DNA of 64,000 nucleotides from a virus (lineage: Duplodnaviria > Caudoviricetes), in the IMG/VR virus record IMGVR_UViG_3300033066_001917, positions 96,001-160,000 of that record. One strand, given 5' to 3'. The first letter of the stretch is position 1. Every line of letters starts with the position of its first letter. A program made the translations under genes and the position numbers. This document shows, one piece after another, positions 972-17,226 of this stretch. Below the pieces are notes generated by a model, which ran no database searches, had not been told where the DNA came from, and saw nothing but the letters and a program-made list of their open reading frames with translations.

Positions 972-1556
972 TCAAGTGCAGTTTTCTTCTTCAAGCAAAT
1001 TTGATTGAAGGATAGCCCCTATTGCTTCCACCTCGGTGAATTCCGAGGTGTCATAATTCCCCGATGTTATTCGTGCCACTAGTTCTTTGTTTCTTTTTTC
1101 CGCTTCTTCCAACTCTTGGGTCATCATTTCTGAGGCTGCAGCATGTGCGTCTTTAGAGGATTTAGCTGTGAGAACGTGGTGCCCATATCCATTAAGTAGG
1201 GCTCTCATTCTCCTGCCGCTTTCATTATCAATTGGACATTCCAGGGGGAATCTAAGCTCTCCGTGAATTTGTCGGTGGACGAGCCAGAGGTAACGGGGCT
1301 TCCCTTTTGTGTTGGTTCCGTTTGGAATGCGGATTATGCGGATTCCGGCTCTGTATTCCGCACGTGAAGTGACGTACACCTCCGTGTCCGCGTCAACCCG
1401 TTGGTCGCAGCAATCCTTATATATCTCTTCGGTAAGGTTTTTTTCGTACAATATGGCTTCATTCAAACTATGAAATTTAACCTCATCGAAATTGCGGAAA
1501 ATTCCCATGATATTCCTACCCCTTCCGAGATCATTTTGATTTTCAGATCGTAACAA
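972..1556 (-). CDS. Hypothetical protein
   Basis: 194-aa ORF, no recognised motif; true start may be the internal Met (MGIFRN). Confidence 0.6.
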   Translation of the reverse strand: MLRSENQNDLGRGRNIMGIFRNFDEVKFHSLNEAILYEKNLTEEIYKDCCDQRVDADTEVYVTSRAEYRAGIRIIRIPNGTNTKGKPRYLWLVHRQIHGELRFPLECPIDNESGRRMRALLNGYGHHVLTAKSSKDAHAAASEMMTQELEEAEKRNKELVARITSGNYDTSEFTEVEAIGAILQSNLLEEENCT

Positions 1557-1561
1557 ATGCC

Positions 1562-2380
1562 ATGACTATTAAGATTGAGGCTTGTTATGTCAAAGGGGAC
1601 GAGGGTCAGTGGGTCACAATACCAGCCCCTGAGTTTTCTAGCCCCGAAGACGGGGGGGATGAGGCTTTAGCTCTTCAGGACTATCTCACCGCCTATTCCC
1701 CACCCAGGGAAGCGGTAGCCCTTCGGTTTACATCTGAATCCATACTGGCTTATGTTAGGATCCATCCCACCTATGGTATGGTCCCGAGATTTGAAGGTTA
1801 CGATGTTATCTGGCCCACAAATGAAGAGCTTGGTGGCATATGGACCACCCCACACGTTCTACCGGATGGCCATATCCTCCCGCTCAACTATGTCGAACCG
1901 GCCGAGAGATTCCAGATGGGGGACGATGAAAGCCCCAAGTCTGATCGCCGTGTAGTTGCGGTTGAGGGCCAATTTTTGGCAAAAACCGCAACCACTGTTG
2001 AGCAGTGGAACTGGTATGCAAAAGCAATAAATGACCCCAGTAAGGTGAAGCCAACCACAAACCAAGAGGGTAGAAGTATACTGGACCATCCAGTGACGGA
2101 AGTCAATTTCTGGGATAGTTTGGACTGGGCTGGGTGGGCTGGGTTGATCCTTCCTACTGAAGAGGAGTGGGAACGTGCGGCTCGGGGAAACGATGGCCGT
2201 AAGTATCCGTGGGGCAATGAACGTCCTACCACCGAGCTATGCCATTTCTCTACCCCCGAGGAAGAACAGACGGGTACGGCCTCCGTCTACGCTCACCCAA
2301 AGGGAATGGGTCCTTATGGGCATCTAGATTTGAGTGGAAATACTTGGGAATGGTGCAATTCCCCGTGGCGAAGAGAGTAG
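1562..2380 (+). CDS. FGE-sulfatase (SUMF1)/C-type-lectin-fold protein lacking its C-terminal RGG..GFR segment
   Basis: HPVTEV.FWD...W...LPTEEEWERAARG.DGRKYPWG, PYG..DLSGNTWEW, then stop. Confidence 0.85.
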   Translation: MTIKIEACYVKGDEGQWVTIPAPEFSSPEDGGDEALALQDYLTAYSPPREAVALRFTSESILAYVRIHPTYGMVPRFEGYDVIWPTNEELGGIWTTPHVLPDGHILPLNYVEPAERFQMGDDESPKSDRRVVAVEGQFLAKTATTVEQWNWYAKAINDPSKVKPTTNQEGRSILDHPVTEVNFWDSLDWAGWAGLILPTEEEWERAARGNDGRKYPWGNERPTTELCHFSTPEEEQTGTASVYAHPKGMGPYGHLDLSGNTWEWCNSPWRRE

Positions 2381-2384
2381 TCCC

Positions 2385-2535
2385 ATGGATCCACTTCTCC
2401 ACTTTACACTACGTGGAAATTTTGTTATCTCATTAGGTACGGAATACACGTATACTCGTTTCTCGATGTGTGGAAAACATTGAAGATGTGGGGTTCCGTC
2501 CATCCCAGCGAGGTTGGTTGAGGGTGGGGAAATGA
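2385..2535 (+). pseudogene. FGE C-terminal cassette 1 (frameshifted)
   Basis: MDPLLHFTLRGNF.. from 2385, then +1 frame ..ENIEDVGFRPSQRGWLRVGK*; TGA overlaps ATG of cassette 2. Confidence 0.5.
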
Positions 2536-2663
2536 ATCCAGAATGCCTCCTCCGAGTTCGTGGAAATCCTTTTTTTAGGGTTCGTTTCTCCGCGAGCTAT
2601 CGCAGTCTAAAACTTGGCTTTAGAACATCACAACGAAGTTGGTTATGCCACTTTCGAGTGTGA
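2532..2663 (+). CDS. FGE C-terminal cassette 2 (43 aa)
   Basis: MNPECLLRVRGNPFFRVRFSASYRSLKLGFRTSQRSWLCHFRV; below ORF-track cutoff. Confidence 0.6.
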   Translation: MNPECLLRVRGNPFFRVRFSASYRSLKLGFRTSQRSWLCHFRV

Positions 2664-2708
2664 ATCCACATTCTGTCTTTTGCTTTATGCAGTTAGAATG
2701 AGCCAATC

Positions 2709-2921
2709 ATGGCGGCTAAAATGAATTATCAAGTAAGAGATAAAAGGATTCAAGTTGCAAGTAGGGGTGGTGGGTGGGGATCTGGTAGAATCCCACAGAT
2801 CCCATCGCGGAGGGATTATTGGTTGGCAGGGGTTCCGTCCATTGATGGAAGCGCGAGGTTATCACAGGTTGGATGGGTTTTACATTCCAAGGAGGTCCGT
2901 CAAATTGATGGCCTCCAGTAA
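2709..2921 (+). CDS. FGE C-terminal cassette 3
   Basis: VASRGGGW...SRR...SIDGSARLSQVGW aligns with RxRGG.W...GFR.SQ.W. Confidence 0.55.
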   Translation: MAAKMNYQVRDKRIQVASRGGGWGSGRIPQIPSRRDYWLAGVPSIDGSARLSQVGWVLHSKEVRQIDGLQ

Positions 2922-3299: not shown

Positions 3300-3944
3300 A
3301 CGCTTGATTGGGTGAAGTTAAAGCAGGCGCTGCCTAAGAAGAGTCGGGATGCTATCTATCGGATGATTGGCGTTCTGGGACTACAGCAACGCAACTGGCC
3401 TGAAAAACACAAAGCCCTGTTGATTTCCTTGTGGGGTCAAGTGACTCCACGACAGCTCCGTAGTAGATTCAAGGACCTCTATTCATGGGACAAAGTTTTG
3501 AAGCAAGCTGACGGGCTTGGTTTATCTAGGGATCTTCCCAGAGGGATGGTTTCTATTCACTCTCTTGGGAAGAACCCTAAGTGGGGTTATGATTACGATC
3601 AAACTCTCCGGGTTCTAAAGTGGTCCGAAGTTCCGGTTCATAACTTCGCCTATGAGGGGAATCGACCGAGATACTGTGTGGACGAATTTGAGGCTCAGGA
3701 AGCGGCTGAGAATTGGGCCCGATCCGAATGCCTTAAAGATGCATCTCTTAGATTGGGTGTTCCCACCTACACAATCAGACGATGGTTGGAAAAGGATGGG
3801 CGGATCCTAAAGAACCGAAAGCATATCAGGTTCTACCCGAATGTATACGACGGTCTGTTGAAGAAGTATGGATCAACCACCCTCGGATCCCCCCAGAAGA
3901 AGAAGCAACAAATCTATCAGGATGGATGGCAAACCGCCGCCTAA
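3231..3944 (+). CDS. Multi-HTH (Myb/SANT-like repeats) DNA-binding protein
   Basis: WTDQEKNTL and WPEKHKALL repeats plus C-terminal ASLRLGVPTYTIRRW HTH. Confidence 0.55.
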   Translation: MPNPWTDQEKNTLKKVLETRKAHTLDWVKLKQALPKKSRDAIYRMIGVLGLQQRNWPEKHKALLISLWGQVTPRQLRSRFKDLYSWDKVLKQADGLGLSRDLPRGMVSIHSLGKNPKWGYDYDQTLRVLKWSEVPVHNFAYEGNRPRYCVDEFEAQEAAENWARSECLKDASLRLGVPTYTIRRWLEKDGRILKNRKHIRFYPNVYDGLLKKYGSTTLGSPQKKKQQIYQDGWQTAA

Positions 3945-6419
3945 CAAGACCAAACCGGCGGAGTAGGCTTGTGGTCCATCAGCCGGTTTGTTTTCCGAAG
4001 CCGTAAGAGCACTTATCACACCATCCGTTCCTGTGGCTAAAACTGGAAGAATAACCGCGTCCGGGATCGATATTTGGAACGGGATGTCAAGGTATCCCCT
4101 GATTTTTCCTAGTACCTCTTGAATTTCAGCCACACGTTGTTCTAGGAAAGAAATGGTTCTCAGAATCCCACTTTCCACTGATTCAGTTCCAGCCGATAGG
4201 GATCCAAGGAACCCATTCACCATTTCCAAGACACGTCCGTTCGCCGCAAGGGGGCCAACACCAACAAGTGGCCTCCATGCCATCCACCCTCCGGGCCTAA
4301 CTCTAGATGTGGTCAAGGATAACACTTCTGCAGCAAGGTTGTAGATGTCAGGGGGGATGACATCCCTCACATACCACGCTCTTTTAGTCCGTATGTCACA
4401 TACCATTGGGGCTGAAGAGAAACCGTCCGGGACATCTCCAAAAGATGACCGGGCAAAGTCATCCCTGGCTTGCAGTTCCATAGCCAAAGGCACAGCAATG
4501 CCCATGTCCCTCCAATACCCAGGAATGCCATAAATGTTTCGGCAAAGAACTGTAGTGTTGGCATCCACTCGGCTGATGCACATGGACTCTAGGATGGTCT
4601 GATTAAGGCCAGGGTTACCCGACGCACCCTCAACCGTGGTATCCGACCATCGCCAATTGATGAGTCGATTGAAAGACTCGGTTCTGGCTCTCAAAAGAGC
4701 CGGTGGGAGATTCCCTTGCACCGCCATGATTTGGTCAGCGAGGGACACAACCTTTGCGTAAAAGTCTCTTGTGAAAGAGTCGGGGCTACTTCCTCTCAAC
4801 CCAAAAAATCGTTGCGGGTTAGTTTCAACTAGGGGAATAAGGTCCTTCCCCGGCCCCTCAAGTCCTGTTGGCTCGTAGACATAAAGTGGAGTTCCAACCA
4901 CTGGTTCCGCTTCCGGGGGTGGGCCGTGGGACACCGGATCGGCCGGTTGGATATCCGAACGACTCAATAGAACAATTCCCAGGGCCGTTTGTAGGGCTGT
5001 TGTATAAAGATTGGTCTCTTGGCTGGGGAACACAACCTTCAAGATCCCACTGGGCGTCCCTTTGGCATCTAAGGTAAATGGAGAGACCAATCCGACTTGT
5101 TCCCGTTCAGCAGAATTTCTTGGCTTCAAGTCCCATTGGAGGGTTTTGAAGTTGTCAGCCGTGACCGTGTCATTCACCGATGTCACCCTCACGTATATCT
5201 CGCGTGGGGCAATGGCATTGTGGGTATCAACCGTGCCATCTTCTAGAATTGGAGCATAGAGAGGCAAGTCATTTTGCGCCAATTCCAAGGTGTAGGTTCC
5301 ACCCACGAGTGCCTGCAAATTGATAGCTTCTCTTGGTACAAAGAACGTTTTTTGGTTGAAATAGATATCACCCTCTTTGGGGAAAGGGTTGTGAAGAGTT
5401 TCCGGGACTGAGGGGTCCCGGAAAAAGAATGCCGGTCGTGCCCCTTCTCTAATTTCAGAACCATTGAAACAGGAGTCCCAGATTACTCCTGGGTCGAGTG
5501 AAATTGAATCATGTCCACCCATGATCCGTAAAATTTGCCCCGTTGTTCCTTCCTTGTATGTTCCTGTCTCATAGGACTGATGGCCCTCGGTGGAACCACC
5601 ACCACCAGCACCTCCGGTTGAGGAAGCCGTTGGAGAAATCCAACCGGCGTAAAAACCTTCTGGAAAGCAAGAAACCTCCACGAGAAATCCCGCCGGGGGA
5701 ATGGTTGGTAGGGGGTTTCCATTGTTGGCATTTGATGGCAAAGTCCAGGAAATGATAGCTGTGTTTCGACCAACCATCTGACTTGTAGCCGCAATAAGTC
5801 TCAGATACGAAGCCTCTCCAGGTCGGGCTGTTTGCGGGGTAGAAGGATAAGTAACGGATAGCCCTGTAGGGGTAGGTAGAGATGTATTCCTACCCGAAAC
5901 CCCAGCCACACCAAGAAGCTGACCAAATGCTTGGCCAGTTCTGCGGAGAGATTGAAATCGGGTCGTGTCAAGAAGTCCATCAACGAAAGAAACGTCAACT
6001 CCGGTATAAACAAAAATACCCAGTACTGTTGTGTTTCCATTAAATTCTGGGCGTCTCGGGTCCCTCCTGTCCGTGAGCCGAGCGATCATTCTCCTCTGAA
6101 ACCCGTCGTATCCACCTTTGAGAGAAGATAAGGGTTCCCCAGAAGCCAAGGCCCCAAAATCTCCCATGTGAGCATACAAACCAGCTTTCCGGAGATCAAT
6201 GAGAGTTCCCTGACACAAATCCACTAACTCATCTAAGATGGCTTTGGTAGGGTTGAGTGTGGGAATTGTGAAGGTTTTTACAATTTGTAGTGTGCTCAAC
6301 CCAATATCTAGGCCCGCATTGACAATCTCCAGGGCCCCGTTTAAGGGCTCTAAGACATCATTGACTTCTGGTAAAGTCAGACGTATTTGAAGTCCACCCC
6401 AGGATCCAATTTCTGGCAT
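3873..6419 (-). CDS. Probable virion structural protein (848 aa)
   Basis: Long ORF tightly coupled to the giant structural gene; G/P/T-rich. Confidence 0.6.
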   Translation of the reverse strand: MPEIGSWGGLQIRLTLPEVNDVLEPLNGALEIVNAGLDIGLSTLQIVKTFTIPTLNPTKAILDELVDLCQGTLIDLRKAGLYAHMGDFGALASGEPLSSLKGGYDGFQRRMIARLTDRRDPRRPEFNGNTTVLGIFVYTGVDVSFVDGLLDTTRFQSLRRTGQAFGQLLGVAGVSGRNTSLPTPTGLSVTYPSTPQTARPGEASYLRLIAATSQMVGRNTAIISWTLPSNANNGNPLPTIPPAGFLVEVSCFPEGFYAGWISPTASSTGGAGGGGSTEGHQSYETGTYKEGTTGQILRIMGGHDSISLDPGVIWDSCFNGSEIREGARPAFFFRDPSVPETLHNPFPKEGDIYFNQKTFFVPREAINLQALVGGTYTLELAQNDLPLYAPILEDGTVDTHNAIAPREIYVRVTSVNDTVTADNFKTLQWDLKPRNSAEREQVGLVSPFTLDAKGTPSGILKVVFPSQETNLYTTALQTALGIVLLSRSDIQPADPVSHGPPPEAEPVVGTPLYVYEPTGLEGPGKDLIPLVETNPQRFFGLRGSSPDSFTRDFYAKVVSLADQIMAVQGNLPPALLRARTESFNRLINWRWSDTTVEGASGNPGLNQTILESMCISRVDANTTVLCRNIYGIPGYWRDMGIAVPLAMELQARDDFARSSFGDVPDGFSSAPMVCDIRTKRAWYVRDVIPPDIYNLAAEVLSLTTSRVRPGGWMAWRPLVGVGPLAANGRVLEMVNGFLGSLSAGTESVESGILRTISFLEQRVAEIQEVLGKIRGYLDIPFQISIPDAVILPVLATGTDGVISALTASENKPADGPQAYSAGLVLLGGGLPSILIDLLLLLLGGSEGG

Positions 6420-6637
6420 TACTTACCCCCACCTCTCCGTATCCTATCAAGCTTTTCCCGTTCTCTTTCCAAAAGCTCAAGGTCGGATTCCAACATCGTC
6501 TCAAGCTCTTTTCTCAAGTATAGGATCAGTTCTCTCTGCTTTGCGAGAGCCGGTAAGTCCCCCAAATTGGTAGGGCCACTGCGTTTCCAATCAATGGAAC
6601 CGGATCTCAATTTTTCTAACAGTTCTTCTCGGGTCAT
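6419..6637 (-). CDS. Small coiled-coil protein
   Basis: 72 aa, overlapping start/stop with both neighbours. Confidence 0.65.
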   Translation of the reverse strand: MTREELLEKLRSGSIDWKRSGPTNLGDLPALAKQRELILYLRKELETMLESDLELLEREREKLDRIRRGGGK

Positions 6638-9600
6638 CGGGTAGACCTAATCGCAAGAGCTTTTTGTTTAAGCTGTTTGATCCTACCCTGTAATGCGGAA
6701 TCGAATCTCCTTATGGCTTCAAGGGTTCCCGTTACCCGGTGGGATCTTGTTGAAATCCAAGCGTCCCTTGTTGCTCTCAATTTGTCCGTCTGGTCTAGAG
6801 ATATCGTGATCCGGTTAGGTAGGACTGGTTTTCCAACCCCATTTTCAAAATCAGCGTAGGGGTCCGTGGAACCATATGGCGGGTGCTCGTGGTCAAGGCT
6901 GATGTCACCCAGCCAGAACCTACGATCTAGAATCGAAAGGCACAAGGCGTTATTGGAGAATGGAGTTACAAGGGTTCGTCCGAATACAGATGCAATCAAT
7001 CCGTTGGACATGATCCCCCATCCCGTATCAAAGTCCGGCAAATAACCCAATTTGGAGATATGTTCTTCAGACTGGAAAACTCTGTATCCACCACCGTGAT
7101 TAATTTCCGAAATGTTTCTCATGACATCAATCCAGGACAGGGTTCTTTCCCTGGTCGAGAATATGAGGTTGATCGTCTCATCCGACAGCTTTGTGGATGG
7201 CCGCAAGATTCTGTAGGAGAACGGGGCAACCGACAACCATGTACCCATGTAACTGTTAAAAGCATCGGGGAAAGCAGTCGGACGAAGGTCCATCTGACCC
7301 TCCAACCCGTTTCCGGAACCCGATAGATTAGATCCATGAACCGTCGGGTAGATGGCATAGGCAGCATTGGATGGTCCGAATACAATATCCGGGTTGCCGC
7401 GGTCTCCAGCAAGATTGTTCTCCTCCGCCGTTACCGTTAGAACACCGTTGGACTTAGCCGCCACCCTATAAAATCCTCTATTATCATCGCATTTTCGCGG
7501 TGTACCCGGGGTGTAATCAGCCCCTCGCGATGACACCCCAAGGTCTCCGGTTGGGGGCTGACCTTGCTCCGGTATTGGGGCCGTTCCTGTAGGACCAGCC
7601 AAGGATCCTGCAGGATCAACCACAACCAAGTCTCCCATTTCAACGTTGGTGTAGGTAACGGTCGGATCCGTATCCGTCAGCTTGTTGACCGATTGGTCAT
7701 ATGCGGTTTGAGGATCAGCATTAGGGACATAGGTGACTTTCCCTCCCTGTTGAGTGGTGTAATTGCATCGTCGGTCTAGAATCACCCGATCTGTGGCAAG
7801 GTCCGCAAGTTCGGCGACCGATTGCTCGTGGGGGACAGGAGGAGTCCTTAATATAACTTCGAATCTGGTGCCAGGAGCAATGGTTTCTTCACATGCAACC
7901 AGTGTAAGAATTTGGTTTTGGACTCCGACGATTTCGGATGTTGTTAGGGTAGTCCCGGATGGGCTAATGAATCTGATTGAGTCCCCCGGGTTGATATTCA
8001 CCCTCTTATCCGTAAAATCCCCCAATTGGGTAGCCTTGCCTCCTCCAATTGGAAATGGTAGCTGGTGGCCATCCACGGGCTCTGCCACCAACGTGCACAC
8101 TCCGTTCGTTGTTGTTACGGATGCTACGACCCCTCTTCTGATTTCATAAGCATAACGGAGGTCTCCGAATGGTGACGTAAGGTCCTCATTTCTGGTGCCC
8201 CATCTTCTTGGCCTTCTTACTTCGGCTTGAGCTATCTCCAAAAAGCTTTGGAGCGGTGGGATAATGCTCGAATCAAAGTATGTTGAAACCGATCTGGCTC
8301 CTACGGCATTGGCCGCTAGGGAGTGGGTGGCATCCACGACATTAACATTCACTGACCCAAGATTGTTACCCACCCTTGGGAACGAAGGCTCCACATAGAT
8401 ACCAGCAGCAGCACTATAATTCGCCACCCATCTGTCCCCTGGAAGAAAGCAACGGGCCCCTGCGGGAATAAAAGCACCTACGGTATGGATGTCATCCCAG
8501 TTGAAACCGGAGAAATCAATGACTCCAGGTATGTGATCGTATACCGGGTCATCTTCCGCTGTGAGTGTAGTGCTGGGTACCTTTACTTTTTCGTAGATGG
8601 ATAGTACCGTTGCTGTACCTTCAAGGTTGCCGTTGGTAGTGGCATCCAAAGTGACGTTAGATACCCCCCTGGATCCAACAACCGACCGAAACCCAAAGAA
8701 AGACCTATTTCCTGGCGCTGCTGTTGCGTTGGTGTATCCAGAATAGTTCTCTGGAATCCCTACGGCTTGCGGTGAAACCGGAGCTAAAGCCATACCACTC
8801 ACGGGCACTCCCACTTGGGCTGCGGCAATAAAAACACCTGAAGAAATAACGTTTCCCAAACCGTCCCGGAAGTCCGTTAGATTGGCAAATGTGGTGTCCC
8901 CCGCCCCCGAAATAGAGCCATATGCCGCACTGTAAATCGCCGTAGCATAAAGTGCGGAGTTGGTAGAGTCCAGGAGGTCCGGCCTCACAATTAGAAAAAC
9001 ACGACCTGTTGGTTTGAAGACTCTCGTGTAAGTAAGGGGAACGCCGCCAAAAGTTTTGACAAAGGGTACCTCCTGATTCGCTGATATGGTGAGGTTGTAG
9101 GGGGCTAGTGTTGTGATTGAAACAACACTAGGGAACTCTATACCTAACCAGTTATTGTCTCCCGTGTTGGCGGAGAGAGTGGCTCTTCTCTCATCTGTCC
9201 CATGTGTCGCTTTGATAACGTTACGAATGCAGTATGTCCCGGCCTTACCCGAAGCCGTAGGTATTGCACTTGCCCCATCCGTAAGGGAGCGAATTACCAG
9301 AAGATCCCCGGGAAGGACGTTTGATACATCTCCAGATAGGGTCGCTTGTGGGGTGAACCTATTTAGCCTGGGTGATAGGGTGGGTGGATTGAAGGCTTCA
9401 TCGCACACAACTTCACCATTGAAAATTGGATCCGTTGCAGTCTGCCGGGCCGTTGGCAGTGCCTTGAAAGTTATGTTAGATGCTTCAATTGGGATATTTT
9501 CATACCCCTCCCAAGCCATGACTTTTAGCGATCCAGTGCCTCCGAAGAACCTCCCAACGCCGTAAACGGAAGGGATTACAGAGCTTCTTGCTTTGAATGT

Positions 9601-12600
9601 GAATGGAACACCACCGTTTGTATTGGTATTTGAGTTGACAGTTATATCCCCTGTAACATATGAGGATGTAAGGGGATCCCAGAAAGAAGCTGTGTTTGAT
9701 GTGATGTTTAGCTGACACTCTACTGGGTCCAGACCAGAAGTAAGAGCACCACGGGGCTGGGCCGTTTTCACATCAATGGGTAGGGTTACGGTTAGCCTAT
9801 CCGCGGCAATGGTGCATGTCCTAGACCCAACACCACCAACAGACAAGGCAGAATCATGGTAGCCTCCGGTTCGTGTGATTCCAGGGGAGGGGTTTGTTGG
9901 GTTGAATGGGGTGAAGTCGAAGAAAGGATTTGCCGTTCTCACCTCAATCACTTGAGGGTGGAACCTTAAACCCCCGGCATTCACGGCTTGTTGGCTAGCT
10001 CCGTTATCCCCGGATACCGTGAAGGATGAAGCCAGGATGTTTGCCCCTGTTCCGGAGTTTGTGAGAACAACTGTTGTGTTTACTTGAAAGTGGCCGTCAG
10101 TGCGGACAAGTTTGATGGACAATCTTGTCCCAACATCACATTGAGAAAGAAAATCATTATATCCACCAACTGGGATGGGTAGGGAACCACCCCCAGTCCC
10201 ATTATCAAGGACAAAATCAGCCGGTGGTGTGGACTCAAAATCAAACGTCGTGATGACGATTCCAACCGTGGTGGTATCTTCGGTCACAACGACACCACTG
10301 ACTCCGCCCCCAAACCACGTTTGAAGATTATCTATTGTCAAATCTACAGCCGATGCCAATAAGGTAGGGGCTACAAATCTTGGGGGCTCTATGACGGAAG
10401 GTGTTCCGTGGGTCACCAACCCAACAGTCATGATTCCCGACGAGCCGGGGGGGGTGGTTACCTCGGGCTGTACCAGAACTACATCATAGGGCCGCAGGGA
10501 ACCCACCCCCCTGTGCCCGGGGGACGGATAAACAGTTGCTGATGGTTGTAGATCCGTGTCGGTCAAAAGGGCGCTTGGGTATGCCGTGTCATAAGGATCA
10601 ATCGCCCCGTCATTGTCGCCTATTTCATCCGGGTAGAGGGCTTCGACAATGTAAGTGTCTACACGTGCAGGGGTCGCTGGTGGTGGGGTTACCGAATCGC
10701 CATACAAGATAGCATCCCCTGGACCAGCAAGGCTTCCCAGCATCTCAATTTCCGATGGTGTCAGAGACGTGTAGGGGAGCCTGTAATCCCCGTTGTCTTT
10801 TTTGGACTCACCCCTCAAGGCCGGTATGTTCAAAGGCTCTACCTGACCGTTTTGGAAGGCAACAACACCCTCTACCGTTCCCATTGGTGGAGGTGGCTTC
10901 TGTCCCGTTATTTCTTTGAGTCCGAATAGGGTTGGGTCACCGAACGACGGGAGGGTTATGTCCAGAATGTCTCCTGTTTTGGGCGAGTACCCAACGTCTG
11001 TGCCTATCCTGTACCCCGGTAGGGCGGTAAGCAAAGTTGCGAGTTCGGAAGCCGTGGGTGGGTCCGAAAGTGTGGGAGATGAAGCACTGTTGGGTATGAC
11101 TAATAAAGTATCCCCCCGTACCGGATCATAGGGAATTCCCGTAGTTTCACCCGTCATAACAACGAGGGTGGATGGATCCGTGATGGGTACGTCGGCCCCC
11201 CCAATGGTCTTTCCCTTGAAAGTAACGGCTGTCCCCTTATATATAGAGTTTACATAAACCCCACCATATCGGCTTGTCCCATCCACATCTAATGTGGTTC
11301 CGGTGTAAGCCAAAGCCCGAATCGATCCATCTGGAAGACCTATGGCTAAAGCATCCCCAGGACGAAAAGGCGGAGTGTGGAGATCAACGCATCCGGTAGA
11401 GATATCATCAACCCCTGTAGGAGTTGGTCCCAAGCTTTGAGATGCAAGTCGCGAAGTATCCGGCAATCCACCGAGGACAGGAAATTCCGCGAAGGGTACT
11501 TGGGCCAAAAGTACGGTCGGGATACCGGAAGTAGCGGCTTCAAGCGAGGCAAATCCTGTTGGGCTATAGTCCCACACCCTGGCCCTGGCGGATCTGTCCT
11601 TAAGGGACAATCCCAGGACGTTCCCCACCACACCAAGAGTTGGGTTTTCCAGTTTCCCGATAGGTTGTCCCGTGGTGGATTGGAGGTCTACGGATAGACT
11701 TGGGGCGAACAGGTTGAGGGTCAGTTTCCCAGCACTATATACCCCATAATTCCCACCCTCGGCACCGATACCTGGACCTAAAGTCGTGAAAACATTGGTC
11801 CGTTCCGGGAAAATCCTAGAGAAAGGTGATGGTGTCGCCAGAGGTAGGAAAGAGCCATATCCTTTGATCCGATATGTGATGAAACCACTCAAAGATCGGC
11901 TTATCCGCTCTCTTGCTACAAGAGCCACGTCATCCAGGTCATTCTGAATTTTCCCACTCTGGAGACCCATGATGGAGGCAAAAGAAGAAGGGTCCTGGAA
12001 TGACCCGTCAGGTCTTCCTTTTCCATCTACGGATGCACCAATAGGACTGATGATGGGGTCCTCTGGGGTCAGCCGAATAGTTGCTTCTCCCGCGCGGAGT
12101 CCGGACCACACTTCTACCCACAGGTTTCTTGGGTTGATAGCTCCTGTCAGTGGATCCTCGTGGCCCGGTGGGACCCACCGATTACCCGGACCTACGCGGA
12201 ATCGGAACTTACCATCCGAGTCCCCAATGGGGTTGCCATCAACAACCTCAAGTATTTGCTCAAAAGATGTGCAGATACCATTGTAGAAAGCCAAAAATGC
12301 TCTGGCAACCCTATCCCTATTGACAAGCACTACCCTTTCTGAGTTCAAGGATTGATTCCCGTGGTCATCTCCGGAGGGTGGGATTGGATCCCATGATATG
12401 ACACTGGATACGGCTGTCTCCACGTAGTCCGCAAAGGGTAAAATCCGAGCATAAAAGCTATCCGGAGAATCATAGCTATATGTCCCCAAGAGGTTCCTTC
12501 CGGGATACGTAGGGAGGGTTATAGCCCCAAACGAAGCTGCAACTCTGGGATTTAGGGTCTGTCCCTCGAATACTTTTGGTTTAAGGGTTCTCCTATCCGT

Positions 12601-15600
12601 TCGGAACAGTCGGATGGTTTGATTCAGGTTTAATCCGGTGATCAGAGTCAGATTTCCCGTGTCCGGGTCTAAATTGAAGTCCCTACCCTCCAAGAGGGTT
12701 TCCCCGGGTAGTGATCCTTCCCACCTAACGGCAATATAGTTTTCCGTGGCAACAAGAGAACTGGATCCAAGAATAGTTTTTGCCCCATCCGGGTAAATTG
12801 GCCTCGTGGAAATCCTCAGACTAGATGCTGCCATTCCGGACGACCAAGAACCAGAGCGAATCACGGATGAAGCCAGGGTGATAGTGGTGGTTCTCCCATC
12901 CGCAGCGAGAGATGCCCCAGAGATTACATAGGGCACCCCAAAAGCCTCTAAGATATGACCCGCGATTGCATACCTCGTGAAATCTCCGGAGAGAACAACA
13001 CTGGTAGTACCGACCAGAAGAGGCTCGAATTGTGGGACTGATGTGACCCCATAGGCCATTGGGAATGTTGCCAGGAATCCAGAATCCACGTTAGGGATGG
13101 ACACACCATCCACTGAAGGGGTGATGGCCCGATCCGTCACGAAGCATATTTGGTCCTCACCGGGGGCGAGGGATCCCGCACCGTTAGGGGGCGGAGGAAA
13201 AATAGTTACAACGGTGTTGGCACCATTTAGGGTGACCGTTTTGAGGTAGGTTGCAAATCCCCCAAGCCGAATCATTCTCCCGGGTGCCATTTCAGCCCTT
13301 CGATCCCCGGAGAAGGTCAAAATGCTTTGATTTCTTCCGATGGAGAAAGGAGGTCGCCACACTGGTGGTTGTGAAACCGTGTAAGTTGTTTCCCCACCAA
13401 TGGTTTCCAGAACGGCATAACTTATCGTCACCACCGTGCCTTCGGCTATGGGGTCCTGGAAACTAATAGTAGATGCCTCGAAGTTCACGGATGACGCCGA
13501 GGGGACGCCGTATGATGTCATCCTCGCCCCAGCATACACTCGGGGTTCGACTGAAACATCCAACTCTCTACCCATGGGGTTGAAGCTATATACTTGCTCC
13601 GACACCCGTGTAGCCACTTCCCGACGAATGAAAGAAGGGAGGACTTCCGTTACAATCGCGGGTTGGCCATTTACAACAATTTTTTCCCCTGTCGAATCTT
13701 TGGCTTTTGTGTAGGTGGCTTCTACAAGTCTTCCGGCGGGTACAGGTTGACGGAAAGTAAATGAACCAAGGATGGGGTTGATTGAGCCATCCAACCCAGG
13801 AACCATTCGAGTTGCGAGGTAGATTTTACTCCCCGTCCTAGTTGCTGTAGCTGCTAACGAAATAGCTACTTCTCCCGTAGTGGGGATTATCTCACCTCTG
13901 CCATCAGGGATCAAAGCTGGGGGTAGGATCCCCTCCACATAGAACACCTCCGACCCCTCGTAATCTCGAAGAACGGCGGCACCAAATTTTAGGTTTCCAG
14001 CACCTGAACCACTCTGGATATACTCCACAGTGGAACCCGGATCCGGGGAGAAAGTAGAAACAGGAATGAGGTCTACCCCATGAGTGTAGGTTTTTGATCC
14101 TACTCGAACGGAGAAAGAAGCCGATGCCAGTCTATCCCCCGTAGGTACGGACAGGGAATCATTTGCTATAGGACCCAAATTTCTTTGGATCAACTTAGTC
14201 AAAGTCACCCACAAAGGAGGGGTTGATGCGATTTTTGCTCTAACTTCGGCGCCGTCCTGAAGAGTTCCCACGGGTTGAAGTGACCCACCGGCCAAACCAA
14301 TCTGTTGAAGAACCTCAATCGAAAATGGATCCTCTTGCAGATGATTGAATTCCCTGTACGTTACATCAGCCAGGATTGATGGATCGATCTCGCCTGGGGA
14401 TACTCCTTCTCTGAGTTCCCAACTTTTGTATGACCCACCGTTGCTTTCTGTGAATGATGGGGTCACCGAAAGGGTGTGTGAGCCAACACCTATTACGGTT
14501 CGATAGGCTCCACCAATACCCAGGAGGTCCCCCACTTCGGCAACGCCAACGAAAGTTGCGCTCTCATCCGTAAAAGTAGGGCCTACACCATATTCTCCTC
14601 TCCCCCCGCTCAAAATGAGACCCCCAACTCTATCAATCAGGGTTGCGGATCCGCCGGACAATAGATAATCGGTTCCTTGATTGAGGTGAACATAAGCACC
14701 ACCCCCTTCGGCCACTTTTAGGTATCCCCCAACAGCGTCATAAAGGGTGTCCCCGATCAAACCGGCGTTCTCGAAGTCAATAGCGTTGATGGTGGTTGTT
14801 ACATTGCCTCCAAAAGAAGCGCGGGCAATCCAACCAACGCGCTTTGTCGGGAATAGATAGGTAGCATTGTCAAATTGACGAAGATAGGACCCCCCGGAAA
14901 CTCTAAAATACACCCCAAAATCGTAACCCGGCAAATCTTCCCTTGGTACCTGATTCAGGAAAACATACGGAGATTGTTGGATGGGTCCTAGATTTTCATC
15001 CCTTAGAGTTGAGATGATTTGAGTGTCCGGAGTTTCTTCCGCACAATGAAGGCCAAATGTGGGCCCGCCTTCTGGACACCAATTACTGTCGTTTGAGTCA
15101 TAAGTGCCCTCCGTCACCGCATAGGACCCAGGGATGAACCCCAACGCTTCACATCCGGAAAGAGCAATTTGCCCCCCCGTGCCGAACCCTATAGATGCAC
15201 GGGTAATACCTTGAATTACGAGTTTGTTGTCTACAACAGAACAAGACCCAGGTGCACTGGCAATGGCGATGTTAAGAGACAGAGCTACGGCGTCAGCCGT
15301 GTGTGTCCCACCACCGAGAACTACGGCAGACCAGTTAACCGTAGTGCTCCCCAGGAGAAATGTGAGCGTTTCAGTTCCCAGTAATGTGTAGGGTCCCGTT
15401 TTACAACTAACTATTTCGATTCCCTCGGGATAGGTGGAGGGGACAAAGTCAGCTTGTGTGAAATATACAAGGTTCCCTTTGAGGGCATTCCCTACATCGG
15501 ATCCAAATACCACCTTACTCCCTAAGGATCCGTGTTTCTCAAGGGATACATACACAGTCCCCTCCGGCATACCATATGTTTCAGATGGTAGGTCTTCCTC

Positions 15601-17226
15601 AAACCCAACACCAATCAAATTGGTAAATCTCCCACCTTTTCCGAAAAGAATTGTGTCTCCGGTACCCGCGGTGAGTTTCCGCACAAGACCCGACCCGTTC
15701 GGACGGGACGTGGGTTGAGTTGAGGTATTAGGTACCACTCCTGTCCCGTCCGGAACCACTACAATGCCCGAAACACCTGTTCCTGGAAGTAATGTGGCAT
15801 CCGGTATATAGAGGTTGACGCCATCCTCATAGACCACCGGAGTACCACCATCACCCACCAATGCTACGGGAGCTATGGTTGGTTGTGGGTGACGGTTGAG
15901 TGTCACCCCATCGTAAAATACCTTTGCACCTAAATACAGGGGGTCAAAGTAAGGGTTTGGTGTGTTATGTGTGCCGGGGTTGGAACGGCTCAAATCCTGG
16001 GCATTGAATTTCAATTTCCCCGTCGTTCGAGCTACACCTACGGATCCAGATGGCACGCTAAGAGCTGCAAGGCTAGTCTCATTGAGAACTAGAATAACCC
16101 TCAGGTAAGCTCTCTGTCCAACCTTGATGAGCGGATACTCCCCATACTGTGGTATTGGGGACAGAAACAAATCTGTGTTAGTGTAGGGGCCTACTTCTCC
16201 AGTAACCCCGTAGAAACTGTCTTGAGATGACCATATAGTCATCCCCTCATAAGAGGACACAAATCCTGGGTTCCATACCAGAGATCCACCCACACCAACC
16301 ACGCCCGCCAGAGGTGGTGTGGTTGTGTTGAAATTATAGTCAGAGTTTGCTTCCTCATCACTAACCACTAAGATCCCGGAGTAGGGTCCAGTAGTGCGAA
16401 AAACTACTGGATAGCTGGTTTCATTTGGAGACGAACCCAGTCGGATTAATGCGGACCCAGATGGTGTTCCGGGGAGATAACCCCCAATTGGTGTATTGGG
16501 AGCCTGGATAATGTAGGCCGATGATGGCTTCATGAGCCCAACATTTATTGGCCCACCACCTTTGAGCGGTTCCCATCGTTGGCTGGATCCATTCCAGGAG
16601 AATCTCTTACGTGTGTCGTTCCTAGACCACCAGAATTTTGACCGCTGGGCGTAGTATCTAACACTTACCGTGTCTCCGCGGAGCGAGGATATTGCTACGG
16701 GGGATCCAACGGGTACATATACCGCTGAACGCACTGTGGGCGTGTCTTGCAGTGTGAGTTTTCTTGTGGGTCCGTCCGCAATAACATCCACACCCACGGC
16801 TAAAGTAACATCTGTGGTCGTACCCCCCCTTCGAAAAACCACGCTAGTGAAAGCGCCAATGGTTTCATCTCCGAGAATGGTGACAACGTTAGATCCATCG
16901 GTTCTGGTGCCCGTGTTGCTGGTAGGGTCCAGAACGGTCATCCCCCTGTTCGGAATATCCGACATCCCATCTTTGGCCCACGACCCATCCTCAATCGTGG
17001 TTAGGGACCCAGAGTTTGCAGCCCATACCAAATATCCGCCTGTGCCAGTAAGTGATGTCCGGACTCGATATCTCTCGGCCGCAACCTCAATTAGTATGGG
17101 TTGCCCTGAAGGGTAGCCCGAGGGGGCCCCCCCAACATACTTTGGGACATTAGCATCCGCAGTCATGCCAGAGGGATTGGAAGGGGAAGATTTGGCCCCG
17201 TCCAGGACGAACCCGTCAAAACTCAT
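6634..17226 (-). CDS. Giant virion structural protein (3530 aa; baseplate/tail-associated)
   Basis: 10.6-kb uninterrupted ORF, G/T/S/P/V-rich beta-type composition typical of jumbo-phage structural proteins. Confidence 0.7.
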   Translation of the reverse strand: MSFDGFVLDGAKSSPSNPSGMTADANVPKYVGGAPSGYPSGQPILIEVAAERYRVRTSLTGTGGYLVWAANSGSLTTIEDGSWAKDGMSDIPNRGMTVLDPTSNTGTRTDGSNVVTILGDETIGAFTSVVFRRGGTTTDVTLAVGVDVIADGPTRKLTLQDTPTVRSAVYVPVGSPVAISSLRGDTVSVRYYAQRSKFWWSRNDTRKRFSWNGSSQRWEPLKGGGPINVGLMKPSSAYIIQAPNTPIGGYLPGTPSGSALIRLGSSPNETSYPVVFRTTGPYSGILVVSDEEANSDYNFNTTTPPLAGVVGVGGSLVWNPGFVSSYEGMTIWSSQDSFYGVTGEVGPYTNTDLFLSPIPQYGEYPLIKVGQRAYLRVILVLNETSLAALSVPSGSVGVARTTGKLKFNAQDLSRSNPGTHNTPNPYFDPLYLGAKVFYDGVTLNRHPQPTIAPVALVGDGGTPVVYEDGVNLYIPDATLLPGTGVSGIVVVPDGTGVVPNTSTQPTSRPNGSGLVRKLTAGTGDTILFGKGGRFTNLIGVGFEEDLPSETYGMPEGTVYVSLEKHGSLGSKVVFGSDVGNALKGNLVYFTQADFVPSTYPEGIEIVSCKTGPYTLLGTETLTFLLGSTTVNWSAVVLGGGTHTADAVALSLNIAIASAPGSCSVVDNKLVIQGITRASIGFGTGGQIALSGCEALGFIPGSYAVTEGTYDSNDSNWCPEGGPTFGLHCAEETPDTQIISTLRDENLGPIQQSPYVFLNQVPREDLPGYDFGVYFRVSGGSYLRQFDNATYLFPTKRVGWIARASFGGNVTTTINAIDFENAGLIGDTLYDAVGGYLKVAEGGGAYVHLNQGTDYLLSGGSATLIDRVGGLILSGGRGEYGVGPTFTDESATFVGVAEVGDLLGIGGAYRTVIGVGSHTLSVTPSFTESNGGSYKSWELREGVSPGEIDPSILADVTYREFNHLQEDPFSIEVLQQIGLAGGSLQPVGTLQDGAEVRAKIASTPPLWVTLTKLIQRNLGPIANDSLSVPTGDRLASASFSVRVGSKTYTHGVDLIPVSTFSPDPGSTVEYIQSGSGAGNLKFGAAVLRDYEGSEVFYVEGILPPALIPDGRGEIIPTTGEVAISLAATATRTGSKIYLATRMVPGLDGSINPILGSFTFRQPVPAGRLVEATYTKAKDSTGEKIVVNGQPAIVTEVLPSFIRREVATRVSEQVYSFNPMGRELDVSVEPRVYAGARMTSYGVPSASSVNFEASTISFQDPIAEGTVVTISYAVLETIGGETTYTVSQPPVWRPPFSIGRNQSILTFSGDRRAEMAPGRMIRLGGFATYLKTVTLNGANTVVTIFPPPPNGAGSLAPGEDQICFVTDRAITPSVDGVSIPNVDSGFLATFPMAYGVTSVPQFEPLLVGTTSVVLSGDFTRYAIAGHILEAFGVPYVISGASLAADGRTTTITLASSVIRSGSWSSGMAASSLRISTRPIYPDGAKTILGSSSLVATENYIAVRWEGSLPGETLLEGRDFNLDPDTGNLTLITGLNLNQTIRLFRTDRRTLKPKVFEGQTLNPRVAASFGAITLPTYPGRNLLGTYSYDSPDSFYARILPFADYVETAVSSVISWDPIPPSGDDHGNQSLNSERVVLVNRDRVARAFLAFYNGICTSFEQILEVVDGNPIGDSDGKFRFRVGPGNRWVPPGHEDPLTGAINPRNLWVEVWSGLRAGEATIRLTPEDPIISPIGASVDGKGRPDGSFQDPSSFASIMGLQSGKIQNDLDDVALVARERISRSLSGFITYRIKGYGSFLPLATPSPFSRIFPERTNVFTTLGPGIGAEGGNYGVYSAGKLTLNLFAPSLSVDLQSTTGQPIGKLENPTLGVVGNVLGLSLKDRSARARVWDYSPTGFASLEAATSGIPTVLLAQVPFAEFPVLGGLPDTSRLASQSLGPTPTGVDDISTGCVDLHTPPFRPGDALAIGLPDGSIRALAYTGTTLDVDGTSRYGGVYVNSIYKGTAVTFKGKTIGGADVPITDPSTLVVMTGETTGIPYDPVRGDTLLVIPNSASSPTLSDPPTASELATLLTALPGYRIGTDVGYSPKTGDILDITLPSFGDPTLFGLKEITGQKPPPPMGTVEGVVAFQNGQVEPLNIPALRGESKKDNGDYRLPYTSLTPSEIEMLGSLAGPGDAILYGDSVTPPPATPARVDTYIVEALYPDEIGDNDGAIDPYDTAYPSALLTDTDLQPSATVYPSPGHRGVGSLRPYDVVLVQPEVTTPPGSSGIMTVGLVTHGTPSVIEPPRFVAPTLLASAVDLTIDNLQTWFGGGVSGVVVTEDTTTVGIVITTFDFESTPPADFVLDNGTGGGSLPIPVGGYNDFLSQCDVGTRLSIKLVRTDGHFQVNTTVVLTNSGTGANILASSFTVSGDNGASQQAVNAGGLRFHPQVIEVRTANPFFDFTPFNPTNPSPGITRTGGYHDSALSVGGVGSRTCTIAADRLTVTLPIDVKTAQPRGALTSGLDPVECQLNITSNTASFWDPLTSSYVTGDITVNSNTNTNGGVPFTFKARSSVIPSVYGVGRFFGGTGSLKVMAWEGYENIPIEASNITFKALPTARQTATDPIFNGEVVCDEAFNPPTLSPRLNRFTPQATLSGDVSNVLPGDLLVIRSLTDGASAIPTASGKAGTYCIRNVIKATHGTDERRATLSANTGDNNWLGIEFPSVVSITTLAPYNLTISANQEVPFVKTFGGVPLTYTRVFKPTGRVFLIVRPDLLDSTNSALYATAIYSAAYGSISGAGDTTFANLTDFRDGLGNVISSGVFIAAAQVGVPVSGMALAPVSPQAVGIPENYSGYTNATAAPGNRSFFGFRSVVGSRGVSNVTLDATTNGNLEGTATVLSIYEKVKVPSTTLTAEDDPVYDHIPGVIDFSGFNWDDIHTVGAFIPAGARCFLPGDRWVANYSAAAGIYVEPSFPRVGNNLGSVNVNVVDATHSLAANAVGARSVSTYFDSSIIPPLQSFLEIAQAEVRRPRRWGTRNEDLTSPFGDLRYAYEIRRGVVASVTTTNGVCTLVAEPVDGHQLPFPIGGGKATQLGDFTDKRVNINPGDSIRFISPSGTTLTTSEIVGVQNQILTLVACEETIAPGTRFEVILRTPPVPHEQSVAELADLATDRVILDRRCNYTTQQGGKVTYVPNADPQTAYDQSVNKLTDTDPTVTYTNVEMGDLVVVDPAGSLAGPTGTAPIPEQGQPPTGDLGVSSRGADYTPGTPRKCDDNRGFYRVAAKSNGVLTVTAEENNLAGDRGNPDIVFGPSNAAYAIYPTVHGSNLSGSGNGLEGQMDLRPTAFPDAFNSYMGTWLSVAPFSYRILRPSTKLSDETINLIFSTRERTLSWIDVMRNISEINHGGGYRVFQSEEHISKLGYLPDFDTGWGIMSNGLIASVFGRTLVTPFSNNALCLSILDRRFWLGDISLDHEHPPYGSTDPYADFENGVGKPVLPNRITISLDQTDKLRATRDAWISTRSHRVTGTLEAIRRFDSALQGRIKQLKQKALAIRSTR

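Follow-up and report, generated by a model that had tools for sequence, protein, structure and literature searches.

A truncated FGE/C-type-lectin gene followed by C-terminal mini-genes in large phages, a candidate split binding protein

Introduction

Variable proteins of the FGE/C-type-lectin (CLec) type are classic targets of hypermutation by diversity-generating retroelements (DGRs), and all those known to us are single polypeptides. In Treponema denticola TvpA (PDB 2Y3C), as in other FGE/CLec variable proteins targeted by DGRs, the C-terminal RGGSW...GFRCA stretch is what varies and binds the ligand; TvpA is one polypeptide, and its reverse transcriptase (RT) and template repeat (TR) lie in the same genome. 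The DGR of Bordetella phage BPP-1 (Mtd, TR, Brt) varies the C-terminal tip of a receptor-binding CLec domain; its single target is intact, RT and TR are encoded in cis, and variation proceeds by retrohoming. In phages T2 and T6, the gp38 adhesin on the gp37 fibre tip is a separate small protein that supplies the receptor-binding surface of a constant partner, and in shufflons and the invertible segments Mu G and P1 C, alternative C-terminal ends are placed on a constant N-terminal part through inversion between inverted repeats by a dedicated recombinase, giving fused genes.

The DGR survey of Wu et al. describes tandem target genes, as many as eight, as well as targets that contain three FGE domains, and no split target (PMC5758913), while a survey of 224 jumbo phages describes no FGE-type lectin domains (PMC7824862). 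Our literature search found no published description of a comparable split lectin with tip mini-genes.

Here we describe a locus in a stretch of 64,000 nucleotides (hereafter, the window) that spans 96001-160000 of an IMG/VR virus record 200 kb long, where the gene for an FGE/CLec-type protein (the scaffold) ends before its domain does and is followed by three short cassettes. The fold is that of TvpA and the other DGR targets, but the segment that is variable in TvpA is here a separate gene, present in several copies, and neither an RT nor a TR was found. Unlike in BPP-1, variation in the window would come from choice among pre-made peptides. The likeness to gp38 is offered as a lead; gp38 is a complete folded domain in a single copy and not a missing piece of its partner's fold. 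Shufflons, Mu G and P1 C likewise pair a constant N-terminal part with several possible C-terminal ends, but their inversion, recombinase and gene fusion have no counterpart in the window. GC-rich giant phages (such as IMGVR_UViG_3300032243_000867; L012, L018) carry a homologous scaffold, ~46% identical and truncated at the same residue, with mini-ORFs directly downstream and ATGA coupling; their arrays hold 10 or more near-identical cassettes, whereas the window has three divergent ones, one of them broken. We consider it fairly likely that the locus encodes a naturally split FGE/CLec binding protein with separately translated tips that complete the fold in trans.

Results

The scaffold gene and its genomic setting

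The record is estimated by CheckV to be 38% complete, and the window has a GC content of 51%. The window contains 23 tRNA genes (34851-57189, all on the minus strand and scattered among small ORFs) and a single ORF of 3530 aa (6634-17226, minus strand), which together lead us to regard the record as a fragment of a very large phage; an 848-aa ORF adjoining the latter (3873-6419) has no PHROG match. A further tRNA with a CUA anticodon (called tRNA-Pyl by ARAGORN) lies outside the window (G000:C1:94376-94449, minus strand), ~1.55 kb before its first base. TAG ends 30 of the 125 long ORFs in the 200-kb record, so that the phage is not visibly recoded. The record also holds, outside the window, a second FGE-domain gene that is intact and unsplit (locus L001, G000:C1:182616-184445, minus strand), a 610-aa open frame with a Cys-rich repeat region and a full RGGSW...GFRCV end.

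The scaffold gene (1562-2380, plus strand) encodes 272 aa and stops at a TAG, with a beta-rich N-terminal domain (approximately residues 1-125) followed by a truncated FGE/CLec domain. It matches the Pfam FGE-sulfatase family PF03781 (E = 6.5e-24) over profile positions 30-194 of 255 only. The protein ends ...GNTWEWCNSPWRRE, with the TAG 8 codons past GNTWEW, at about profile position 197, and the final ~60 positions, including the RVxRGGSW...GFRCA segment, are absent. When modelled alone with AF2, the scaffold is predicted to fold confidently (pLDDT 89, pTM 0.88), so it might work without a partner. A Foldseek search with this model matched FGE/EgtB folds; every alignment was to a chain of the FGE/EgtB type and none spanned more than ~220 columns, and the N-terminal domain gave no match of its own.

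Truncation at the same point across homologues

We searched 5.8 billion proteins for homologues, keeping clusters that cover the whole scaffold query, and obtained 26 clusters at 40-73% identity and 268-305 aa in length, all of which end 4-8 residues past GNxWEW. In that alignment, ordinary FGE proteins run ~60 residues further. No fused scaffold-cassette form, which would be ~330 aa long, was found among these clusters in a search that spanned lengths of 149-476 aa, and a complete PF03781 domain in one polypeptide is seen neither in the scaffold nor in any cluster. The loci of the relatives were retrieved with an alignment query; a single-protein query matched nothing. Had the truncation been simple decay, relatives carrying one intact gene would be expected, and instead the proteins of all 26 clusters stop at this point, with cassettes following in every relative whose DNA we read. 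From these comparisons, we read the split as a conserved design and not as simple decay.

The identity of the stop codon also bears on how the pieces might be joined. The scaffold ends in TAA, TGA or TAG depending on the relative, which excludes a reassigned stop. A related possibility is that frameshifting, bypass or readthrough fuses the scaffold to cassette 1, whose start lies within 5 nt of the scaffold stop; the CUA-anticodon tRNA located ~1.5 kb before the window, and a scaffold gene that ends in TAG, would fit with this. Against it, the frame offset from scaffold to cassette is +1 in the window but -1 in L003, L006, L010-L012 and L024, the stop codon itself varies among relatives, no XXXYYYZ slippery site lies near any scaffold stop, and reading through the TAG in the window yields 47 residues without FGE likeness. 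Neither the slippery site nor the constant frame relation of a programmed ribosomal frameshift is thus present. Frameshifting by -1 or +1 was rejected on these grounds, as was TAG readthrough by the record's CUA tRNA on account of its product, and we find recoding of any kind barely credible.

Three cassettes downstream of the scaffold

Cassette 1 is in two parts on the plus strand, a first half (2385-2483) that starts with an ATG at 2385, contains ...TLRGNF... and ends at a premature TGA (2481-2483), and a second half (2482-2535) in the +1 frame that reads EDVGFRPSQRGW... and carries the GFRPSQRGW tail. The frameshift between them is real in the present assembly, and the counterparts at the same position in L003 and L024 are intact; cassette 1 is probably a broken mini-gene. 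Cassette 2 (2532-2663, plus strand) is one open frame of 43 aa, MNPE...RVRGNPF...GFRTSQRSW..., and lacks ~11 loop residues that typical cassettes have; its ATG and the TGA that closes the second half of cassette 1 overlap as ATGA, and a purine-rich, Shine-Dalgarno-like GAGGGTGGGG lies upstream. Cassette 3 (2709-2921, plus strand) is intact and encodes 70 aa, ...RGGGW...ARLSQVGWVLHS... (...ARLSQVGW...). In these respects, our results agree with a sequence-only reading of this DNA, which had claimed an FGE ORF that stops just after GNTWEW without its terminal segment, three short ORFs behind it with the first frameshifted, and an ATGA overlap between cassettes 1 and 2. That reading had also pointed to a 14-bp repeat common to cassettes 1 and 3. 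The repeat, GGGGTTCCGTCCAT, does occur at 2490-2503 and 2829-2842, but at a blast E of 0.41 it does not exceed chance, matches as long also arising by chance, and it is not read as GFR in the conserved frame of cassette 3. The stop of cassette 2 falls within a terminator-like hairpin and its T-rich tail (2656-2673, plus strand), which might keep cassette 3 transcriptionally apart; terminator-like sites in the region are no more numerous than the shuffled expectation.

The window groups with L003 and L024 in a clade of 49-59% GC whose cassettes end in GFRxxQxGW. Within this clade, cassette 3 is orthologous to the last cassette of L003 (7837-8013; local alignment score 97, z = 15.9), cassette 2 resembles cassette 2 of L003 (z = 7.4), and the tail of cassette 1 resembles L003 cassettes (z = 7-8), while nothing significant was obtained for the first half of cassette 1 in the comparison with the clade. 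Against an HMM built from the cassettes of relatives only, the window cassettes score within noise in a six-frame scan of the 200-kb record (E = 0.9-1.2), a level reached by ~17 matches over the 400 kb of both strands. By our estimate, three such matches would fall by chance inside the 540 nt downstream of the truncated gene with a probability of ~2e-6. The same scan found no further cassette in the 200-kb record besides the three, and cassette 2 has no Pfam match.

Mini-gene arrays in relatives

We read the downstream DNA in the window and in nine other distinct loci (L003/4/5, L006-L013, L023, L024), and in every relative found 1 to 10 or more same-strand cassettes downstream of the scaffold. 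We list 57 mini-ORFs of 47-68 aa, each with an ATG or GTG start, and many are preceded by Shine-Dalgarno (SD)-like sites, such as AAAGGAGG in L007, the clearest instance, and GGAAGGGA in the GC-rich clade. The scaffold stop overlaps or abuts the start of the first cassette, and many consecutive mini-ORFs are joined by ATGA or GTGA stop-start overlaps, junctions which account for a frame that shifts by -1 with each successive unit and for a repeat period of 176 nt. Independent gene callers also score the mini-ORFs as genes, and a library of 1.84 billion proteins repeatedly yields free-standing proteins of 54-71 aa with a match to the whole cassette profile. The mini-ORFs of the relatives have the structure of genes.

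Cassettes also occur in other arrangements. Proteins in which 2-4 cassettes are fused in frame without a lectin body are found in L003 (7326-7652) and in the protein collection (P0110, P0118, P0137, P0140). In GC-rich relatives, cassette arrays are also located far from the scaffold gene (L014, L016, L017, L018, L020; records G002-G004), and in one genome (G002), identical variable regions are found at two loci, at ~9 kb and ~66 kb, which suggests duplication or conversion between arrays.

Cassettes correspond to the missing FGE segment

Of 49 cassettes, 23 match PF03781 on their own (best E = 2.4e-7), and hhalign places the cassette profile on the C-terminal RVxRGGSW...GFRCA segment of full-length FGE with a probability of 96% (E = 2.5e-9). 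This family-level alignment answers the objection that the peptides might not align to the FGE C-terminus at all. Scaffold and cassette profiles also cover consecutive stretches of known structures, residues 134-246 and 267-308 of 6muj, and residues 158-229 and 254-294 of TvpA (2y3c), so that the cassettes map to the segment that bears the variable region (VR) in TvpA, i.e., the C-terminus of a CLec-fold target. The truncation is conserved, and the two pieces are homologous to, and tile, a complete FGE domain. At the level of the family, the cassettes encode the missing segment; for the window's own three, this assignment comes by way of their clade orthologues and a docking prediction, which suggest the same.

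The cassette alignment is invariant only at M1, R10 and G29, and no conserved Cys pair is present in it. The catalytic cysteines of human FGE, Cys336 and Cys341, lie in the C-terminal segment. Without the Cys pair that would mark a catalytic formylglycine-generating enzyme, the cassettes are likelier to serve in binding than in catalysis.

Predicted docking of scaffold and cassette 2

The sequence-only reading had offered assembly in trans of one scaffold with interchangeable specificity peptides as one of two explanations, and a complex prediction for the window's own pair favours it. Scaffold and cassette 2 together reach an ipSAE of 0.91, compared with 0.34 for the best of 3 controls, a mark reached by 58/80 solved complexes and 2/110 mismatched pairs. 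Contacts agree between runs in at least 91% of cases, with a partner pLDDT of at least 69, and in the predicted complex the GFRT residues of cassette 2 pack on scaffold residues 139-144, 186-197 and 263-264. A pass is to be expected for two halves of one fold when, as for scaffold and cassette 2, many structures of that fold have been solved, and it may reflect likeness to solved FGE; the prediction indicates that the pieces fit a known fold, and not that they bind in a cell.

The docking result also bears on whether the mini-proteins act alone or with other partners, as free binders or decoys, with a position beside the scaffold that reflects origin only. In its favour, many relatives' arrays lie far from the scaffold gene, behind unrelated genes, and fusion proteins of several cassettes without a body exist. 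However, at ~55 aa and with no more than the final segment of the FGE fold, such a peptide is unlikely to fold by itself, a cassette comes directly after each scaffold gene, in many cases with a start-stop overlap, and the docking prediction for the pair passed its controls. We regard independent action as improbable.

A retroelement signature in GC-rich relatives and its absence from the window

As the sequence-only reading had it, the window contains no RT, and we found no RVT_1 domain anywhere in the 200-kb record, itself 38% complete, nor any RT in four related phage records (the five records total ~790 kb, all fragments). No second copy of any window cassette is present in the 200-kb record, and hence no TR/VR pair. 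The window cassettes themselves were considered as such a pair and rejected, sharing weak DNA similarity plus the 14-mer at E = 0.41.

In the GC-rich relatives (L010-L021), 24 distinct cassettes have an invariant backbone and vary at NNC codons, with the third base fixed and the first two free, and the residues at these codons fall almost entirely within the 15-residue set reachable from AAC. Two degenerate patterns of the template inferred from them gave 0 matches in IMG/VR, and a scan of genome contigs gave one match, in a 2470-nt contig (CAISKJ010000074.1, locus L022) labelled as an uncultured deltaproteobacterial MAG. This contig carries an RVT_1 ORF (2-1135, E = 3.6e-14), the template just after it (~1175-1280) and, on the opposite strand, an FGE target (1818-2468) that is intact (E = 2.2e-41, profile positions 29-255), with GNVWEWTSTV... 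running unsplit into RGGSW...GFRCA.

When compared with this bacterial template, phage cassettes mismatch at 336/600 adenine positions vs. 181/1950 other positions. GC-rich cassettes differ from it at 9-16 of its 24 adenines and at 0-5 of the remaining 78 positions, with 0/78 non-adenine mismatches in the two best, whereas the window is without such a signature. The GC-rich cassettes carry the pattern expected of DGR adenine mutagenesis, and their template was located in the bacterial MAG, next to an RT, rather than in any phage DNA sampled. Window cassettes differ from the template in length; those of L024 keep its length, with mismatches at 16-17/24 adenines vs. 25-27/78 elsewhere, a pattern that is only residual.

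Possible turnover and partial erosion of the array in the window clade

The L003 array holds 7 cassettes and is identical in three samples (L003, L004, L005), so that nothing points to ongoing hypermutation. The window array has three divergent cassettes, the first frameshifted, the second shortened and the third intact and conserved. Within the family, the window is a distant member of low GC that is partly eroded and has no RT, template or DGR signature. The idea of active diversification, which the sequence-only reading had entertained for this locus, is not borne out for the window's lineage, as the signature is seen only in the GC-rich relatives.

One further strain, L023 (ENA ERZ650281, NODE_9208; 1328-2962), is 98% identical over window positions 1086-2412, an identity that breaks off precisely at cassette 1's RG motif and gives way to unrelated sequence. 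Downstream, it carries a different short cassette 1, a canonical cassette and then a 409-aa gene absent from the 200-kb record. Coverage of L023 is low, so a chimeric assembly is possible, and its divergence is either a real array replacement or a low-coverage chimera.

A break of this kind at the start of cassette 1 is also what one might see if the cassettes were silent donors, their sequence being copied to the scaffold or recombined with it (through retrohoming, gene conversion or site-specific recombination) so that a fused gene results, and the layout does resemble the expression site and cassettes of pilE/pilS or vls systems. This was the second explanation of the sequence-only reading, and the evidence speaks against it. 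There is no fused gene in the 26 clusters, the cassettes have starts, SD sites and coupling, all of them are in direct orientation (in the window, all on the plus strand) with no flanking inverted repeats, the L003 array is identical over three samples, and no recombinase was recognised among the neighbours scanned, most of which have no family match. The intact expressed gene and the cassettes lacking translation signals that define pilE/pilS and vlsE-type systems are not what we observe. We consider donor cassettes very unlikely.

Erosion of the array leaves one more alternative, namely that the window cassettes are dead relics of a system that has lost its diversifying input, with only the scaffold, or nothing, still functional. 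The broken cassette 1 where L003 and L024 have intact counterparts, the missing ~11 residues of cassette 2, an array of 3 cassettes against 7 in L003, the lack of any other cassette, RT or template in 200 kb, and HMM scores of E ~1 are all in keeping with this. On the other hand, cassette 3 is an open 70-aa ORF kept in L003, cassette 2 is open, has an SD-like purine stretch and docks in prediction, and a second sample has the same intact scaffold at 100% identity. Relics are in our view unlikely, though less so than the other alternatives.

Discussion

In the split protein that we favour, ORF 1562-2380 would supply a constant body that ends short of its final strand-loop segment, the one that in TvpA and other DGR targets carries the ligand-contacting variable region, and each mini-gene would supply one version of that segment. 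The mini-genes would be translated separately, through coupling or re-initiation and without fusion, and the peptide would dock non-covalently into the body and complete its fold, one body taking alternative tips. We infer the translation of the mini-genes, the docking itself and the binding function. In the GC-rich relatives, tips would be hypermutated by a DGR whose template was found only in a bacterium; in the low-GC lineage of the window, this link is absent, and a small array would turn over by wholesale replacement between strains. As to whether the locus is a combinatorial binder, a lectin body with interchangeable tips in which the split persists without retroelement input and diversity arises via array swaps between strains, we lean very slightly against, with the chances not far from even.

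To the GC-rich phages, the window adds a distant low-GC clade, a case without a DGR footprint and strain-level array replacement, and these three additions bear on which is primary, the split or the hypermutation. If the interpretation is true, the locus would offer a ready-made split-protein scaffold for engineering, and a conserved split with many tips per body would be a new route of diversification, by peptide choice in trans.
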